DNA of 64,000 nt, from contig JAZRXB010000247.1 of assembly GCA_045600005.1 (NCBI GenBank), positions 51,070 through 115,069 on the forward strand. Direction: 5' to 3'. Position 1 is the first letter of the stretch. Each line of letters begins with the position of its first letter. The notes beneath the pieces were generated by a model. The model made no database searches. It saw only the letters and a program-made list of their open reading frames with translations, and was not told the origin of the DNA. The stretch comes from Eubacteriales bacterium (GTDB lineage Bacteria > Bacillota > Clostridia > Oscillospirales > CAG-272). Made by a program: the position numbers and the translations under genes. Below are positions 2,656-40,620 of the stretch, one piece after another.

Positions 2656-3414
2656 GTGGGCAAATCGACGGCGGCGGTCAATCTGGCGTACTCGCTGGCG
2701 AAAAACGGCAGCCGGGTGCTTCTTGCCGACTGCGATTTCGATATGAGATGCCTTGATCTTCTGCTCGGCGCCGAAGACCGCGTTCTGTATGATCTGCTTG
2801 ACGCGGCAAAGGGGCGCGTGAGCGTGGAAAAGGCGATGCTCCGCGACGAGCGTTCGGAGAATCTGTATTTTCTGGCGGCGCCTTCCGCCGACGGAAGGTC
2901 GCTCACAGGCGGAGAGCTTGCCCGCGTGTTTGAAGAAGCGCGGCAGGCGGAACCGTTCGATTTCATTCTGCTTGACACGCCCGGCTCGCTCGGCGCACCC
3001 GCGCTGCTGGAGGCGGGGATCGCGGATGAGGCGATGATCGTCGCCTCCCATCATCCGGCAAGCATCCGCGCCGCGTGTCAGACCGGCGAGATGCTCGAAG
3101 AGGCCGCGGTCCCCGAGCTGCGTCTCCTTATCAATCAGTTTGATCTGGAGGGCGCGGCGTCCGGCAGACGTCCCGGCGTCAACGAGATCATCGACCGCTC
3201 CTATATCCGGCTCTGCGGCATCGTGCCGTATGACAGCGCTCTCATGCTGGCGTCCGAAAACGGAAAGCTCGCCTTTGAGCTGAAGCATTCGCCCGCCGCT
3301 GCCGCATTTGACAATATCGCGCGCCGTCTGAACGGTCAGAACGTGCCGCTGTTCGACGGCTTTACCGGCTGGCGGACAAAACGCCTGATCCGGCGGCTTC
3401 TCGAAGCGGACTGA
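2656..3414 (+). CDS. MinD/ParA-family P-loop ATPase. The ORF-track start falls inside the Walker A motif, so the true start is probably TTG 2615 in another frame (see finding).
   Basis: The deviant Walker A KGGVGKST straddles 2647-2670. Also present: DCDFDMRCLDL, LLDTPG, and a basic amphipathic C-terminus (KRLIRRLLEAD) like the MinD membrane-targeting helix. Confidence 0.8.
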   Translation: MGKSTAAVNLAYSLAKNGSRVLLADCDFDMRCLDLLLGAEDRVLYDLLDAAKGRVSVEKAMLRDERSENLYFLAAPSADGRSLTGGELARVFEEARQAEPFDFILLDTPGSLGAPALLEAGIADEAMIVASHHPASIRAACQTGEMLEEAAVPELRLLINQFDLEGAASGRRPGVNEIIDRSYIRLCGIVPYDSALMLASENGKLAFELKHSPAAAAFDNIARRLNGQNVPLFDGFTGWRTKRLIRRLLEAD

Positions 3415-4100: not shown

Positions 4101-5519
4101 TTCTTTGATCAGAGAATCGCAGATCGCTTCTGCGGCGAGCTTGCCCGCGCCCATCGCGGAAATGACGGTTGCCGCGCCGGTCACGGCGTCGCCTCCGGCA
4201 TATACGCCCGCTCTGGTGGTCGCGCCGGTGGTTTCCTCCACGATGATGCCGCCGTGACGGTTGACCTCAAGTCCCGCGGTCGTCGACTTGATCAGCGGAT
4301 TCGGGGACGTGCCGATCGCCATGACCACCGTGTCGATGTCCAGCACATATTCGCTGCCCTCGACCGGAACGGGACGGCGGCGTCCGCGCTCGTCCGGCTC
4401 GCCCAGCTCCATGCGGATGCAGCGTATGCCCGTGACGCAGCCGTTTTTCGGATCGCGGCGGTCGTCGGGATTACGCCAGCCGAGGATCTCGACCGGATTG
4501 TTTAACAGAAGGAATTCGATCCCCTCTTCCATCGCGTGTTCGACCTCTTCACGGCGCGCCGGAAGCTCCTCCATCGAACGGCGGTAGATGATGAAGACCT
4601 TTTCTGCGCCCAGACGAAGCGCGGTGCGCGCCGCGTCCATGGCAACGTTGCCGCCTCCGACGACCGCGACTCTGCCGCCTTTGGAGATCGGCGTGACCGG
4701 ATCGTCCCGGTACGCCTTCATCAGATTGCTTCTGGTCAAGAACTCGTTTGCGGAATAGACGCCCTTGAGACTTTCACCCGGGATGTTCATGAAATTAGGA
4801 AGTCCTGCGCCGCTTCCGATGAAGACCGCTTCATATCCCATTTCAAACAGCTCGTCGACCGTCAGCGTTTTGCCGATGACCATGTTGGTCTCCACATCGA
4901 CGCCCATCGCTTTCAGATTGTCGACTTCCTTCTTGACGATGCTCTTGGGCAGACGGAATTCCGGGATGCCGTATACCAGCACGCCGCCCGCCGTGTGAAG
5001 CGCTTCAAAAACCGTGACCTTGAAGCCCTTCTTCGCAAGGTCGCCAGCACAGGTCAGACCGGAAGGACCGGAGCCGACGACGGCGACCCTGTGACCGTTC
5101 GGTTCGGGAACGGCGGGCGCTTCGGTCTGATGCTCGTTGTGCCAGTCGGCGACGAAGCGTTCCAGCCGGCCGATGCCGACCGGCTCGCCCTTGATGCCGC
5201 GCACGCATTTCGATTCGCACTGCGTTTCCTGCGGGCAGACCCGTCCGCAGACCGCCGGAAGCGAGGAGGTCCTGCTGATGATCTGATAAGCGCCCTCGAA
5301 ATCGCCCTCACGGATCTTTTCGATGAACGCGGGAATGTGGATATTGACCGGACAGCCCGATACGCAGGGCATATTTTTGCAGTTCAGACATCTTGCCGCT
5401 TCGTCGAGCGCGGCGGCTTCCTCATATCCCCTTGCCACTTCCTCGAAGTTGTGCGCACGGACGGCGGGGTCCTGCGTCGGCATGGGGTTCTTTTTGAGTG
5501 ACATATTCGGCTTTGCCAT
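4098..5519 (-). CDS. NADPH-dependent glutamate-synthase small-subunit-like oxidoreductase (GltD/NfnB/SudA family) with an N-terminal 2x[4Fe-4S]-type Cys region
   Basis: CLNCKNMPCVSGCP and CGRVCPQETQCESKC Cys clusters. Two Rossmann GxGxxG motifs (VAVVGSGPSGL and VAVVGGGNVAMD). C-terminal GGDAVTGAATV. No partner subunit gene is adjacent. Confidence 0.8.
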   Translation of the reverse strand: MAKPNMSLKKNPMPTQDPAVRAHNFEEVARGYEEAAALDEAARCLNCKNMPCVSGCPVNIHIPAFIEKIREGDFEGAYQIISRTSSLPAVCGRVCPQETQCESKCVRGIKGEPVGIGRLERFVADWHNEHQTEAPAVPEPNGHRVAVVGSGPSGLTCAGDLAKKGFKVTVFEALHTAGGVLVYGIPEFRLPKSIVKKEVDNLKAMGVDVETNMVIGKTLTVDELFEMGYEAVFIGSGAGLPNFMNIPGESLKGVYSANEFLTRSNLMKAYRDDPVTPISKGGRVAVVGGGNVAMDAARTALRLGAEKVFIIYRRSMEELPARREEVEHAMEEGIEFLLLNNPVEILGWRNPDDRRDPKNGCVTGIRCIRMELGEPDERGRRRPVPVEGSEYVLDIDTVVMAIGTSPNPLIKSTTAGLEVNRHGGIIVEETTGATTRAGVYAGGDAVTGAATVISAMGAGKLAAEAICDSLIKE

Positions 5520-5553
5520 GTTCTTGTCTTCTCCTTATGTTATCTCGTTTTAG

Positions 5554-5718
5554 CCGATTGTAAAACTGCGTTTTACAATCGGAACTCACGCTTATCGCCG
5601 CCGACAAAATTTGTTTTGTCGGCTCTCCTCATATCGGCGCGAGGGCTCGCCCCGGCTCGCCTTAGAGGAGTTTTTATGTCGGCAAAGCCGACATAAAAAC
5701 GGATTTTATTATAACGTT
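5554..5718 (-). repeat. composite multi-hairpin intergenic repeat, copy A (reverse complement of copy B at 40432-40620)
   Basis: By-eye alignment to rc(40432-40620) gives roughly 90 percent identity with one indel of about 23 nt. Hairpins: 5554-5582 (CGATTGTAAAAC-TGC-GTTTTACAATCG), 5600-5623 (10 bp) and 5670-5700 (14 bp perfect). Confidence 0.85.
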
Positions 5719-8357: not shown

Positions 8358-9791
8358 ATGCTGTCTGCATTCACTCCTTTCCGATTTGAAACCGCATCGC
8401 CCGAATCGGTCGGCATCAGCAGAGCTTCCATCGCCGCGTTCGAGGAAGAAATCCGCTCCCAGAACATCGGGCATCAGGGCTATATGCTTTACCGTCACGG
8501 CAAGCTCGCCGCTTCCTCTCTCGCCGAGCCTTACCGTCCGACCGATAAGCGGCACGTCTACTCGGTCAGCAAGAGCTGGACCAGCACTGCCGTCGGCATC
8601 GCGGTCGATGAAGGACTTCTCTCCGTCGAAGATCATCTGGTCGACTTCTTCCCGGACCTGACGCCCGAAAACGCGCCGGAAAATCTCCGCAAAATGAAGC
8701 TCCGCCACGTGCTTTCGATGAACACCGGTCATCAGACCGACACGCTCGGCAGAGTCGCTTCGCGCGAGCCGGGCTGGGCGAAGCGTTTCCTGTCGCTCGA
8801 CGTGGAAAACGAGCCCGGCACGCATTTCGCGTACAATTCCACCGCGACCTATATGCTGTCCGCCGTCCTCACCCGCGTCACCGGGCAGAGAATGGTCGAC
8901 TACCTGAAGCCGAGACTGTTCAATCCGCTGGGCATTGAAAACGTCTGGTGGGAGGAATCGCCCGAAGGCGTCAGCGACGCCGGATGGGGCATCCATGTTT
9001 CGGCGGAGGATATGTTAAAGCTCGGCGTTCTTTATCTGCACAAGGGAATGTGGGAAGGGAAGCGCATCCTGTCCGAAAAATGGGTCGAGGACGCAAGCTC
9101 CTTTGTGTCGGACAACGGCGCGAACCACGATTCCGACTGGCAGGTCGGCTACGGCTATAAGTTCTGGCGCTGCCGCCACAACTGCTACCGCGCGGACGGC
9201 GCATATGGTCAGTTCATCGTCATTTCGCCCGAAAAGGATATGGCCGCGGTCATTCTCTCCGAAGACAACCGTTTGCAGGGCATCCTCGATGTGTTCTGGG
9301 ATACGATCTTCGCGTCCCTGTCCGACGAGGCGCTGCCCGAATCCGACGGCTCGGAGGACATCGCGGTCCGTCCGTATCAGACGCTGCCCGACGGGGACGA
9401 AGCGTTTGAAGACGTTTCCTTCACTGCGGAGGACAACCCGGAGCAGATCGCCGGGCTGACGCTCCGTCATGCCGGGGACGCGCTCGCGCTGACGCTGACC
9501 GGAAAGCTCGAACATTCCATCGAGCTGATCTGCACGCGCGGACGCTGGGAATACAATCGCTTCTCGCACTGTCCGATCACGCCGACCGCTTTCCTTGCGA
9601 ACACCGCCATCGGCGTTCCCGCCGAGATCGCGGCTTCCTACGGCGTGAAGGACGGTCATCTGACCGCGGCGCTCCAGTTCGTCACCACGCCGCACGGCAT
9701 GACGCTCGATATCGACTTCGCTGCAAAGACGCTGACCGTTTCGCGCACCATCTCGCGCGGGCAAGCGGACCCGGTGATCAGACTGAGCTGA
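8358..9791 (+). CDS. serine hydrolase, beta-lactamase/transpeptidase-like (class C / esterase type)
   Basis: SxxK motif in HVYSVSKSWTSTA near the N-terminus, and a YNS (YxN-like) motif. No signal peptide. Confidence 0.7.
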   Translation: MLSAFTPFRFETASPESVGISRASIAAFEEEIRSQNIGHQGYMLYRHGKLAASSLAEPYRPTDKRHVYSVSKSWTSTAVGIAVDEGLLSVEDHLVDFFPDLTPENAPENLRKMKLRHVLSMNTGHQTDTLGRVASREPGWAKRFLSLDVENEPGTHFAYNSTATYMLSAVLTRVTGQRMVDYLKPRLFNPLGIENVWWEESPEGVSDAGWGIHVSAEDMLKLGVLYLHKGMWEGKRILSEKWVEDASSFVSDNGANHDSDWQVGYGYKFWRCRHNCYRADGAYGQFIVISPEKDMAAVILSEDNRLQGILDVFWDTIFASLSDEALPESDGSEDIAVRPYQTLPDGDEAFEDVSFTAEDNPEQIAGLTLRHAGDALALTLTGKLEHSIELICTRGRWEYNRFSHCPITPTAFLANTAIGVPAEIAASYGVKDGHLTAALQFVTTPHGMTLDIDFAAKTLTVSRTISRGQADPVIRLS

Positions 9792-15035: not shown

Positions 15036-15055
15036 TCGCAGATAAGTGCCAAAAA

Positions 15056-15087
15056 GGAGGCTCCCCGAAAGGGGAGTCCCCTTTTTT
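15056..15087 (+). terminator. rho-independent terminator of the S-layer gene
   Basis: GGAGGCTCCCC-GAAA-GGGGAGTCCCC followed by TTTTTT. Confidence 0.85.
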
Positions 15088-15092
15088 CATAT

Positions 15093-15215
15093 GAAGTTCA
15101 GATAAACTGAACTTATAAAGTTCAGAATAACTGAACATTATTCGGTTCGGAAATTCTGAACTATATACAGTTCAGAATAAACCGAACTTCAAATAGTTCA
15201 GAAAAACTGAACTCA
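15093..15215. repeat. five tandem units (24-26 bp period), each carrying the palindrome GTTCAG-N5/6-CTGAAC
   Basis: GTTCAG or GTTCGG starts at 15096, 15120, 15145, 15170 and 15196. The partner CTGAAC or CCGAAC starts at 15107, 15131, 15156, 15182 and 15207. Confidence 0.9.
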
Positions 15216-15221
15216 GCGCCG

Positions 15222-15253
15222 AAAAACGATCCCGCCGGGCGGCGGGATCGTTT
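15222..15253 (-). terminator. rho-independent terminator of hom (T-rich on both sides)
   Basis: AAACGATCCCGCC-GGGC-GGCGGGATCGTTT. The minus-strand reading is followed by TTTTT. Confidence 0.8.
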
Positions 15254-25285: not shown

Positions 25286-27628
25286 ATGATTACCAAGATA
25301 GTCAAAAGAGACGGACGGGAAGTCCCGTTTAATATAGAGAAGATCGCCAACGCCATTTTCAAGGCGGCTCAGGCTGTCGGCGGGCGCGATTACAGCATCG
25401 CGCTTGATCTGGCGTGCCAGGTCGCCAATGAGCTGGAAAAGGAGATCGGCGAAAACGGAAAGCCTACCGTGGAGCAGATCCAGGATATGGTCGAAAAGGT
25501 GCTTGTCACCAACGGTCATGCCCGCACCGCAAAGGAATACATCCTGTACCGTGCCGAACGCACCCGCGTCCGCGACATGAACTCGCGTTTAATGAAAACC
25601 TACGAGGACCTGACCTTCAAGTCCGCGAAGGATTCCAACATCAAGCGTGAAAACGCCAACATCAACGGCGACACCGCGATGGGTACGATGCTCAAGTACG
25701 GCTCCGAAGGCGCGAAGCAGTTCTATGAGATGTACGTCCTCGACCCGATGCACGCCAAGGCGCACCATGACGGCGACATCCACATTCACGACCTTGACTT
25801 CCTGACGCTGACCACCACCTGCTGCCAGATCGACATTCTCAGGCTGTTTGAAGGCGGCTTCTCCACCGGACACGGCTTCCTTCGCACGCCGAACGACATC
25901 GCAAGCTATTCGGCGCTCGCCTGCATCGCCATCCAGTCGAACCAGAACGATCAGCACGGCGGACAGAGCATCCCGAACTTCGAGTACGGCATGGCGCCCG
26001 GCGTCAAGAAGACCTATAAAAAGAACTACCGTAAGAATCTCGCCAAGGCGATCGACCTTCTGTGCGGCGACGCCGACGCGGAAAAGACCGTGACCGGACT
26101 GCTCGAAGCGGTCGAAAAAGAAACCGGCATGATCCCGACCCTCGCCGAGAACATTACGTTTGACGAAGCCGTCATCGAAAAGCTCACCGCAGCCTACGGC
26201 GCGGAAAAAGCCGCAAAATTCAGCGCATTCGCCCGCAGATACGCAGTCTCCGAGACCGAGCGCGCCACCTATCAGGCGATGGAAGCGCTGGTCCACAACC
26301 TGAACACCATGCACTCCCGCGCGGGTGCGCAGATCCCGTTCAGCTCGCTGAACTACGGCATGGACACCTCTCCCGAAGGACGTCTGGTCATGAAGAGCAT
26401 TCTGCTTGCGACCGACGCCGGACTCGGCAACGGCGAAACGCCGATCTTCCCGATCCAGATCTTCAAGGTCAAGGAAGGCGTCAACTACAATCCCGGCGAC
26501 CCGAACTACGACCTGTTCAAGCTGGCGTGCCGCGTTTCCGCCAAGCGTCTGTTCCCGAACTTCTCGTTCATCGACGCGCCGTACAACCTCCGTTATTACA
26601 AGGAAGGTCATCCCGAGACCGAAGTCGCGTACATGGGCTGCCGTACCCGCGTGATCGCCAACAACTACGACCCCGCCCGCGAGACGGTTTACGGACGCGG
26701 AAACCTCAGCTTCACGTCGATCAACCTGCCGCGCCTCGGCATCAACGCGAAGGGCAGCGTCGACGTCTTCTTCGAGAGCCTTGACCGCGAGATCGCTCTC
26801 GTCATCGATCAGCTGCTCGACCGCTTCAAGATCCAGAGCGAAAAGACCGTGCGCAACTACCCGTTCCTGATGGGTCAGGGCGTATGGCTCGATTCCGAAA
26901 AGCTCGGCATCGACGACAAGGTGGGCGAGGTGCTCAAGCATGGTACGCTGACCGTCGGCTTTATCGGTCTGGCTGAGTGCCTGAAAGCGCTCATCGGCAA
27001 GCATCACGGCGAATCCGAAGAAGCACAGCAGCTCGGTCTTGAGATCGTCGGCTTCATACGCAGACGCACCGACGAGGCAAGCAAGAAGTACGGTCTGAAC
27101 TTCTCGGTCATCGGCACCCCTGCCGAGGGTCTGTCCGGACGTTTCGTCCGCATCGACAAGAAAAAGTTCGGCGAGCTTCCGGGCATCACCGACCGCGAAT
27201 ATTACACGAACTCCTTCCATATCCCGGTTTACTATGAGATCTCCGCAGCAGACAAGATCCGTCTGGAAGCGCCTTACCACGAGCTGACCAACGGCGGTCA
27301 CATCACCTACGTCGAGCTGGACGGCGATCCGCTTGAAAATCTGGACGCATTTGAATCGGTCATCCGCTGCATGAAGGAAGCGGGCGTCGGCTACGGTTCG
27401 ATCAACCATCCGGTCGACCGCGACCCGGTCTGCGGCTTCACCGGCATCATCGGAAACGAATGCCCCTGCTGCCACCGCACCGAAGCGGACGGAAAGGGCA
27501 AGTTTGAGCGCATCCGCCGCATCACCGGTTATCTGGTCGGCACGCTCGACAGCTTCAACGACGCAAAGCGCGCCGAGGTCGAAGACCGCGTGAAGCATTC
27601 GGTCAGAACGCAGCTTGATGAGCTTTAA
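25286..27628 (+). CDS. nrdD: anaerobic ribonucleoside-triphosphate reductase (class III)
   Basis: N-terminal ATP-cone (ITKIVKRDGREVPFNIEKI), a C-terminal Zn ribbon (CGFTGIIGNECPCC) and the glycyl-radical motif RRITGYLVG. Confidence 0.95.
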   Translation: MITKIVKRDGREVPFNIEKIANAIFKAAQAVGGRDYSIALDLACQVANELEKEIGENGKPTVEQIQDMVEKVLVTNGHARTAKEYILYRAERTRVRDMNSRLMKTYEDLTFKSAKDSNIKRENANINGDTAMGTMLKYGSEGAKQFYEMYVLDPMHAKAHHDGDIHIHDLDFLTLTTTCCQIDILRLFEGGFSTGHGFLRTPNDIASYSALACIAIQSNQNDQHGGQSIPNFEYGMAPGVKKTYKKNYRKNLAKAIDLLCGDADAEKTVTGLLEAVEKETGMIPTLAENITFDEAVIEKLTAAYGAEKAAKFSAFARRYAVSETERATYQAMEALVHNLNTMHSRAGAQIPFSSLNYGMDTSPEGRLVMKSILLATDAGLGNGETPIFPIQIFKVKEGVNYNPGDPNYDLFKLACRVSAKRLFPNFSFIDAPYNLRYYKEGHPETEVAYMGCRTRVIANNYDPARETVYGRGNLSFTSINLPRLGINAKGSVDVFFESLDREIALVIDQLLDRFKIQSEKTVRNYPFLMGQGVWLDSEKLGIDDKVGEVLKHGTLTVGFIGLAECLKALIGKHHGESEEAQQLGLEIVGFIRRRTDEASKKYGLNFSVIGTPAEGLSGRFVRIDKKKFGELPGITDREYYTNSFHIPVYYEISAADKIRLEAPYHELTNGGHITYVELDGDPLENLDAFESVIRCMKEAGVGYGSINHPVDRDPVCGFTGIIGNECPCCHRTEADGKGKFERIRRITGYLVGTLDSFNDAKRAEVEDRVKHSVRTQLDEL

Positions 27629-37530: not shown

Positions 37531-37567
37531 ATAGTCGATTGTAAAACTTCGTTTTACAATCGACTAT
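37531..37567. repeat. solo copy of the CGATTGTAAAAC-N3-GTTTTACAATCG palindrome (arms extended to 17 bp)
   Basis: ATAGTCGATTGTAAAAC-TTC-GTTTTACAATCGACTAT. The core ends 31 nt before the ATG at 37594. Confidence 0.9.
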
Positions 37568-40413: not shown

Positions 40414-40431
40414 AAATGGTTTAAGATGATG

Positions 40432-40620
40432 AACGTTATAATAAAATCCGTTTTTATGTCGGCTTTGCCGACATAAAAACCCCTCTAAGGCGAGCAAAGC
40501 GAGCCCTCGCGCCGATATGGGGAGAGCCGACAAAACAAAGTTTTGTCGGCGGGCAAAAACGTAGTTTTTGTCTGCGGCGATAAGCGCGAGTACCGATTGT
40601 AAAACGAAGTTTTACAATCG
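40432..40620 (+). repeat. composite multi-hairpin intergenic repeat, copy B (between cysE and cysS)
   Basis: Hairpins at 40450-40480 (14 bp perfect), 40526-40550 (10 bp), 40549-40575 (12 bp with 2 G.U; this module is absent from copy A) and 40594-40620 (CGATTGTAAAAC-GAA-GTTTTACAATCG). Confidence 0.85.

Follow-up and report, generated by a model that had tools for sequence, protein, structure and literature searches.

Between two convergent genes of the Eubacteriales bacterium contig JAZRXB010000247.1, in the 64-kb stretch of DNA analysed here (hereafter the window), lies a tandem array of five short palindromes, at 15089-15213. The array is a real feature that cannot be put down to chance, and there appears to be constraint on its arms. 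The interpretation that we tentatively prefer, although we hold it with somewhat less than even confidence, is that the array is a lineage-specific cluster of extragenic palindromic repeats, placed in the way of bacterial interspersed mosaic elements (BIMEs), with arms that are either recognised by a protein or homogenised, and with no cis-regulatory target. An operator, an origin and a centromere are all disfavoured because the array is found downstream of both genes and between their terminators, without a promoter or partner genes, and also because it is absent in relatives, lies at a rearrangement junction and belongs to a genome that is prone to repeats.

In the preferred interpretation, one unit of about 25 bp, built on a palindrome of 17-19 bp with the core (A)GTTCAG-W5/6-CTGAAC(T), would have been amplified head-to-tail to five copies, in a gap where added DNA disrupts neither gene nor promoter. 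The two arms of each unit would have been kept one helical turn apart, and the A/T-only centre and the linkers would be free to vary. Such an arrangement could be a symmetric site for a dimeric protein on duplex DNA, or a hairpin or cruciform that is itself recognised. We infer that the arms are held by recognition, of a protein site or of a hairpin, and that the array originated by local amplification, the latter because the units lie head-to-tail with a uniform polarity of their loops. There may be more copies elsewhere in the genome.

Arm conservation and half-site geometry

The units have the form (A)GTTC[A/G]G-W5/6-C[C/T]GAAC(T), and the consensus of the ~25-bp repeat unit is TATAnAGTTCAGAAAAACTGAACT. 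They are joined by A/T-rich linkers of 5-6 nt, which gives a period of 24-26 bp, and the sequence reads exactly as an earlier sequence-only reading of this DNA had described it, as five tandem palindromic units with that period. Tandem Repeats Finder reported the array at 15090-15213, with a period of 25, 5.0 copies, 74% matches and a score of 121, which makes it the top-scoring tandem repeat of the window. The pattern GTTCRG-N4-7-CYGAAC was observed six times in the window as compared to 0.12 times expected, with five of the six in the array, and the exact palindrome form was found four times against an expectation of 0.00. The sole other exact match, GTTCAGCTCGCTGAAC at 26338, has a G+C-rich N4 spacer, lies within the nrdD reading frame and is consistent with chance. 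When the window was searched with 2-3 mismatches allowed, no further units above expectation were found outside the array, which bears out the earlier statement that the window holds no other copy of the motif. Zero extra copies in 64 kb is compatible with roughly 100 copies or fewer in a genome of a few Mb.

The G+C content of the array is 33%, as compared to 58% for the window; at the non-arm positions it is 8%, and every base of the loops is A or T. All five loops are A-rich on the plus strand, from which it follows that the units are direct copies and not alternating, and the linkers also align head-to-tail. The array was also examined as a possible miniature inverted-repeat transposable element, and its flanks showed neither a target-site duplication nor distinct terminal repeats.

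To see where the units differ, they were aligned, and departures from the majority of each column were counted in the arm columns and in the others. There were 2 mismatches among 60 positions in the twelve arm columns and 17 among 70 elsewhere (Fisher p=0.0008), and of the arm positions occupied by G or C none had decayed to A/T (0/30). The only two changes in the arms are A/T-to-G/C transitions, and both of them yield the same half-site variant, GTTCGG, once in the left arm of unit 3 and once, on the opposite strand, in the right arm of unit 4. Within a dyad the centres of the half-sites are separated by 11 bp (by 12 bp in unit 4), and from one dyad to the next by 13-14 bp. A symmetric dimer in contact with successive major grooves classically has its half-sites spaced by one helical turn. 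The conservation confined to the arms, the shared degenerate position, the one-turn spacing and the A/T-only centre together say that the 6-7-bp arms are the putative constrained part, each of them as a half-site in its own right. Judged from the sequence, this variation favours recognition by a protein on DNA, or recognition of a DNA hairpin or cruciform, over one RNA structure. The preference of the sequence-only reading for a protein-recognition motif over RNA pairing would thus seem to be the better fit, given how differently the arms and the other columns vary and that the two altered arms share one variant.

The same alignment has to be weighed against a neutral origin, in which a minisatellite was amplified by slipped-strand events, its arms homogenised by template switching and its loops and linkers left to drift under A/T-biased mutation. 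A head-to-tail arrangement, a restriction to one lineage and a gap where added DNA interrupts nothing are all in keeping with such a minisatellite, and 92% A/T at the non-arm positions is what would be expected if these were unconstrained. Template switching between inverted-repeat arms is moreover a homogenising mechanism that is documented in the literature (PMC8604942). The divergence of 24% at the non-arm positions, however, implies that the array is old, yet its arm G/C positions are intact, and the probability that the two arm changes would share both half-site position and base is 1/18 if they were independent and random. We therefore consider a neutral minisatellite to be quite unlikely.

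Terminators, promoters and folding of the array

The positions of the units and of the features that surround them are given in Table 1. The array is extragenic, at the 3' ends of two convergent genes, and occupies a gap of roughly 135 bp between their terminators. The terminator of the S-layer gene folds with -24.5 kcal/mol on the plus strand and -22.9 kcal/mol on the minus strand, and that of hom with -27.3 kcal/mol on the minus strand and -25.9 kcal/mol on the plus strand. Both are bidirectional, since A- and T-runs flank each hairpin, and the insulation by strong terminators on both sides that had been proposed from the sequence is confirmed by the folding on both strands. No sigma-70-like promoter was found in 15088-15220 and no credible open reading frame (ORF) within the gap. 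The sole small ORF, 38 aa on the minus strand and overlapping the terminator and the end of the S-layer gene, was judged to be spurious. Being downstream of both flanking genes, and with no promoter, the array regulates neither of them.

Table 1. Units of the array, terminators and flanking genes, with positions in the window.
Feature	Position	Strand	Sequence	Arms and spacer	Remarks
SLH-domain S-layer protein gene, 1111 aa	11700-15035	+			Pfam SLH E=8e-15; homologues named S-layer homology domain proteins
Intrinsic terminator of the S-layer gene	15051-15086 (stem), plus a T6 run	+			A-run before the stem, T-run after it
Unit 1 palindrome	15095-15113		AGTTCAGATAAACTGAACT	AGTTCAG-ATAAA-CTGAACT	+ strand RNA hairpin -7.6 kcal/mol
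Unit 2 palindrome	15119-15137		AGTTCAGAATAACTGAACA	AGTTCAG-AATAA-CTGAACA	Hairpin -6.6 kcal/mol
Unit 3	15144-15162		GGTTCGGAAATTCTGAACT	GGTTCGG-AAATT-CTGAACT	Left arm is the variant GTTCGG
Unit 4	15169-15188		AGTTCAGAATAAACCGAACT	AGTTCAG-AATAAA-CCGAACT	Variant right arm; 6-nt spacer; -2.9 kcal/mol (+ strand RNA)
Unit 5 palindrome	15195-15213		AGTTCAGAAAAACTGAACT	AGTTCAG-AAAAA-CTGAACT	
Intrinsic terminator of hom	15224-15253	-			Perfect 14-bp arms, 15224-15237 and 15240-15253; T-rich tails on both strands
Homoserine dehydrogenase gene hom, 396 aa	15260-16450	-			Convergent; Pfam E=1e-61; NCBIfam

This setting bears directly on the possibility that the array is a dedicated element of the host, in which a dimeric helix-turn-helix protein would be loaded onto five operator-like dyads and form a nucleoprotein block. 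Such a block could act as a reservoir for titration, as an anchor for the nucleoid, or as a roadblock or insulator between hom and an S-layer gene that would be very highly expressed. In its general form this is the idea put forward by the sequence-only reading. The 11-bp half-site geometry, the strong conservation of the arms, the degenerate position that they share and the centre made up of A and T alone are all properties that such an element would have, and the terminators insulate the array from transcription. Two dyads were also found directly upstream of nosL in a Sutterella metagenome-assembled genome (MAG), which shows the motif in the promoter-proximal position that is typical of an operator. 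Here, on the other hand, there is no promoter to control and no adjacent cognate gene; the closest regulatory gene, of the LacI family, is 4 kb off, and LacI-family operators differ in appearance from the dyads of the array. There is no further site in the 64 kb, nor is the array conserved in any relative examined. The period of 25 bp, about 2.4 helical turns, would furthermore place neighbouring dimers on different faces of the helix. We regard a dedicated host element as possible, though on the unlikely side.

A more specific proposal would be that the array serves, without any promoter, as a dedicated place on the chromosome where a dimeric DNA-binding protein is loaded, and that a nucleoprotein block formed there on the five dyads acts as insulator, roadblock or topological barrier. 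The place proposed for that block is the dead zone between the most strongly transcribed gene of the cell, the S-layer gene, and a convergent biosynthetic gene. We know of no such promoter-less nucleoprotein-block element described in Clostridia, and we think it decidedly doubtful that the array is one.

As RNA, four of the units have folding energies of -6.6 to -7.9 kcal/mol; the hairpin of unit 4 is disrupted on the plus strand and that of unit 3, by symmetry, on the minus strand. The sequence-only reading had noted that the two arm substitutions are uncompensated, and this is true with the correction that each of them allows a G.U pair on one strand and leaves an A.C mismatch on the other, the variant arm of unit 3 giving G.U on the plus strand and A.C on the minus strand. 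Because the two substitutions favour opposite strands, no single strand keeps five hairpins. The fold of the whole array has a z-score of about -9 to -10, but such scores carry no weight since they are automatic for any repeated palindrome. A loose terminator scan gave two inter-unit sites on the minus strand of the array, 15125-15107 and 15201-15182, with T-rich tails, and the hairpins at these two sites are weak, about -7 kcal/mol. The stems of the units are 6-7 bp long with three G-C pairs, and there is no T-run on the plus strand. Rfam 15 gave no match at the gathering score across the whole window, and nothing credible at E<=10, where the best E over the array was 0.3, to miRNA models.

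An RNA element acting on read-through transcripts could protect the 3' end of the S-layer mRNA, or supply hom with weak back-up terminators on the minus strand. It could draw on the folding of four out of five units and on the fold z-scores of the array, and also on the two minus-strand sites of the terminator scan, since the loops are U-rich on that strand and the stems are thus followed by U-rich tracts. There is also a similar array of three units in a phage head module, a setting in which it could plausibly act as RNA. It was found on a phage contig with 63% G+C (L065, IMGVR_UViG_3300045885_000002), at 4262-4342, with three AGTTCAG-CTAAT-CTGAACT units at a period of 24-26 bp. That array begins immediately past the stop codon of a 129-aa ORF; the terminase and portal genes lie upstream of it, and a 374-aa ORF and the major head gene downstream. 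In the window, however, strong terminators precede the array from both directions, and the stems are weak, in addition to the loss of a hairpin on either strand and the lack of an Rfam match. An RNA element is therefore unlikely.

Chromosomal setting and related loci

The window is ordinary chromosome. Its genes include glyA, a gene for a MinD-like ATPase beside mgsA, ackA, DUF1015, beta-lactamase-fold proteins and PBP5, followed in our list by Aldedh, a short-chain dehydrogenase, the LacI-family regulator, a DHDPS-family protein, hom, ilvD, nrdD, pheST and cysS, and also by an ABC transporter, glycoside hydrolases, fucose isomerase and pfl with its activase. The Pfam scans of the window covered ORFs >100 aa, and among these there was no Rep, ParB or integrase. 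The canonical Firmicute parS, TGTTNCACGTGAAACA, had no match in the window at <=2 mismatches, and the sequence of the array is unrelated to it. The sole ORF of the ParA superfamily, 2656-3414 on the plus strand, is found beside mgsA, 12 kb from the array, and its best-scoring profile is MinD (TIGR01968, E=3e-43, short of the curated cut-off). As called, this ORF is without the first ~13 positions of the MinD profile, and the in-frame sequence upstream of it (...KTILITSCKGGVGKST) puts the P-loop before the listed GTG start, so that the true start of the MinD-like gene is further upstream.

The sequence-only reading had suggested a GC-skew analysis to learn whether the locus lies near ori or ter. 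In 2-kb bins the skew is negative only at 12-16 kb, where the S-layer gene and the array lie, and from 16 kb onwards it is positive again. A stretch of 64 kb is too short to place ori or ter in this way. No replication-associated gene was found among the scanned ORFs, and nothing in the 64 kb marks either site.

A collection of 15 billion proteins contains the hom and S-layer proteins once each, as one-member clusters, from a single 140-kb NCBI contig. We compared the locus with eleven hom loci and ten S-layer loci of relatives, about 230 kb of DNA that is partly redundant. The nearest hom relatives are ~80% identical and the nearest S-layer relatives 40-48%. The dyad array is absent from all of these loci, and the terminators are present. 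Synteny from PBP5 to the S-layer gene and from Aldedh to hom is kept in the relatives, and in one of them ackA/DUF1015 are found within 10 kb of Aldedh-hom. The downstream neighbour of the S-layer gene, on the other hand, varies across nearly all lineages (GH2, CmpB, SbcCD, HicB/PemK toxin-antitoxin, RbfA-TruB). The site directly 3' of the S-layer gene is a hotspot for changes in gene order among the relatives, with PBP5 always kept upstream, and the gap that holds the array is itself a gene-order junction unseen in the relatives' loci examined.

The only near-match in these loci comes from one relative (L025/L026, S-layer protein 40% identical), in which a hairpin, AACGGTTCGG-ATGC-CTGAACCGTT, was observed at 8385-8410, directly after the S-layer terminator. 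Its arms (position 8390) are GGTTCGG/CTGAACC, as in unit 3, and it terminates a convergent gene. This hairpin could be the ancestral seed of the unit or a coincidence, and the resemblance is compatible with chance.

The sequence-only reading had named an iteron, parS or centromere-like array among the possible roles, and this we could not uphold, in view of the ordinary chromosomal setting and of what is missing there, namely Rep, ParB, parS and an unwinding region. Because the array is missing from every related locus examined, a conserved chromosome-maintenance site is unlikely as well. The main alternative to the roles that the sequence-only reading proposed would be a REP-like repeat present 3' of many genes. 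It is conceivable that the array is the iteron origin or partition centromere of a plasmid or phage, similar to the lambda origin or to sopC, or an operator or end left behind by a lost mobile element. The architecture does resemble that of the lambda origin (PMC7466680). The array lies at a synteny junction, and relatives hold the HicB and PemK toxin-antitoxin genes 3' of the S-layer gene; the same dyad was also found twice just past the end of a piggyBac-like transposase gene in one metagenome contig. All the same, the scanned ORFs included no Rep, ParB, integrase or transposase, and the only ParA-superfamily gene is MinD-like and distant. There is no A+T-rich unwinding region beyond the array, as G+C-rich terminators abut both of its ends, and a BLAST search of the array against the plasmid and phage collections returned only chance-level matches (best E=0.1-0.3). 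An origin in a plasmid, a phage or a mobile element is accordingly very unlikely.

The junction also raises the question of an assembly artefact, a chimeric join of two contigs of the MAG via a shared repeat. The array sits exactly where the gene order is unseen in relatives, and a single MAG contig is the source of the sequence. Both flanks, however, end in complete genes with proper terminators, and the coarse neighbourhood is conserved, with ackA/DUF1015 near Aldedh-hom. The variable neighbour of the S-layer gene in the relatives implies that the rearrangement is genuine, and the five units are diverged and not collapsed copies. An artefact thus has very little probability.

A second, unrelated dispersed repeat of ~170 bp was observed in the window, at 5548-5715 (plus strand) and 40430-40620 (minus strand, inverted), with a partial copy at 37535-37565. 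It consists of four successive hairpins, for instance CGATTGTAAAACTGCGTTTTACAATCG and GCCGACAAAA..TTTTGTCGGC. The full copies are 92-94% identical over two aligned segments, and a 26-bp indel adds one hairpin. One copy lies 5' of ackA, one between cysS and the gene of a hexapeptide transferase, and one 5' of a GH43 gene. No copy was found in any of the relatives' loci examined, and Rfam gave no match. The presence of this lineage-specific and hairpin-rich repeat in addition to the array indicates that the genome accumulates extragenic palindromic repeats.

Look-alikes and comparison with known systems

A strict two-unit pattern was run over 185,579 species genomes and gave 13 loci, none of them in Clostridia and 8 of the 13 from one Prevotella MAG. 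In this MAG (Prevotella sp. RUI320) the loci form a dispersed family on at least eight contigs, each with 2-3 tandem GTTCAG-GGCCG-CTGAAC hairpins. All of the arrays are intergenic, and convergent reading frames flank three of the eight. The arrays have a period of 22 bp and linkers of the TAATA type, and most of them adjoin a GTTTCAAG..CTGAAAC hairpin. In its behaviour the family is like BIMEs and the repetitive extragenic palindromic (REP) sequences. It resembles our array in having tandem GTTCAG-N5-CTGAAC units with A/T linkers of 5 nt, an intergenic location, and arms that are conserved next to loops that vary. It differs in its G+C-rich loops (GGCCG or CGGCC), the 22-bp period, the extra hairpin and the unrelated phylum.

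A looser pattern with A/T loops gave 32 metagenome and 5 viral loci in heterogeneous contexts, including long hairpins and coding sequence. Besides the nosL, transposase and phage head examples given above, these contained a TetR gene and an AAA/HTH gene with four GTTCGG...CCGAAC dyads in the interval that separates them. As the pattern selects for the arms, the matches are to be seen as look-alikes in architecture that recur in several roles, and not as a family.

Two recurrent sequences were noticed on the way. A perfect palindrome of 26 bp, TATACTGAACCATGTGGTTCAGTATA, is conserved in eight loci from metagenomes of soil and peat, where it coincides in part with a GTTCGG-ATATA-CTGAAC dyad. 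It is found just upstream of what looks by eye like a divergent winged-helix (ArsR-like) gene, and is probably an operator. In eight phage or prophage contigs of ~40% G+C a repeat of the form GTTCGGAAATCCCGAAC-AACTGAACA-GTTCGGAAATCCCGAAC was found. Its first copy is, in one of them (L053), apparently within a reading frame (by eye ...SVVRKFRTT..., RhuM-like), which points to duplication of the end of a gene, perhaps at an attachment site.

A literature search for GTTCAG/CTGAAC inverted repeats returned nothing relevant. Among known operators, the LexA Cheo box of Gram-positive bacteria is GAAC-N4-GTTC and the dyads of the ArsR/SmtB type are TGAAC..GTTCA. The array shares the GAAC/GTTC core of these half-sites, and differs in not being in a promoter. 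It reads GAAC-N7/8-GTTC and GTTC-N9/10-GAAC, which is the wrong spacing for a Cheo box, and both ARG boxes and ArsR-type dyads were rejected for their spacing as well. A CodY box was dropped, since a comparison by eye gave agreement with its consensus at ~9/15 positions of a single unit, and the PurBox (CCGAAC core) is present in one unit only. The LytTR 9-mer [TA][AC][CA]GTTN[AG][TG] fits several of the half-sites, but GTTCAG already fixes most of its information. LytTR sites are direct repeats with a period of 21-22 bp, in promoters.

Of the known origin and partition sites, sopC of the F plasmid has tandem 43-bp repeats in helical phase with short internal inverted repeats, adjoins sopAB and has no promoter function. 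The array is like it in having tandem units with an internal inverted repeat, and differs in its 25-bp period, which is out of phase, and in lacking parA/parB. The lambda origin has four 19-bp imperfect inverted-repeat iterons (PMC7466680). In general, iterons of the lambda type are 4-6 tandem 19-bp inverted repeats bound by a dimeric initiator, with the order arm, A-rich centre, arm, and the array shares this layout. The lambda iterons are however situated within the initiator gene, next to an A+T-rich unwinding tract, in a replicon that encodes O and P, as opposed to the array, which has no initiator, no unwinding tract and a chromosomal housekeeping context.

If a specific protein holds the arms, this would be a compact and tractable non-regulatory DNA-binding array in an uncultured gut/rumen lineage of Clostridia. 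Extragenic palindrome clusters of the BIME type are best known from Proteobacteria, and a protein-held array would mean that they have counterparts with very different units, here perfect 19-bp dyads with A/T centres. If it is instead a local minisatellite, it could be used as a variable number tandem repeat (VNTR) marker for strain typing, and would be an example of arm-only conservation that mimics a binding site. Either way, there is no bearing on the regulation of the S-layer gene or hom.

REPs and BIMEs are extragenic, clustered and protein-binding (PMC2817692, PMC3733652), and several observations weigh against placing the array with them. REP families usually have >100 copies per genome (PMC2817692), a copy number that predicts ~2-3 per window, and the array is one locus in 64 kb. 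One end of a REP palindrome bears a tag, GTAG or CGTC (PMC3733652); no such tag was found beside any unit when all five unit flanks were read, the left flanks being TGAA, TAAA, TTCG, TACA and AATA and the right ones T or A followed by A/T. In BIMEs regularly spaced REPs alternate in orientation (PMC2817692), unlike the head-to-tail units of the array, and 19-bp palindromes with A/T-only loops are atypical for REPs. The scanned ORFs >100 aa included no match to Y1 (RAYT) or any other transposase family. The arms could also have been conserved without selection, through homogenisation by template switching among arms that are mutually complementary. The Prevotella family, finally, shows that such families exist and does not show homology, since it was the search pattern that selected the arms.

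The array is therefore not a member of a REP family as defined, having no tag, no alternation and one locus in the 64 kb. Its host is a Clostridia MAG, and the survey of REPs in PMC3733652 makes no mention of Firmicutes or Clostridia. What the array has in common with REPs and BIMEs is short palindromes in tandem clusters with short linkers, located at 3' ends and in convergent gaps next to terminators. In both, the palindrome is conserved and the linkers vary, and REPs and BIMEs are protein-binding or structural DNA and not operators. By this analogy, the context of the array matches the niche of REP/BIME-type clusters (PMC2817692, PMC3733652).

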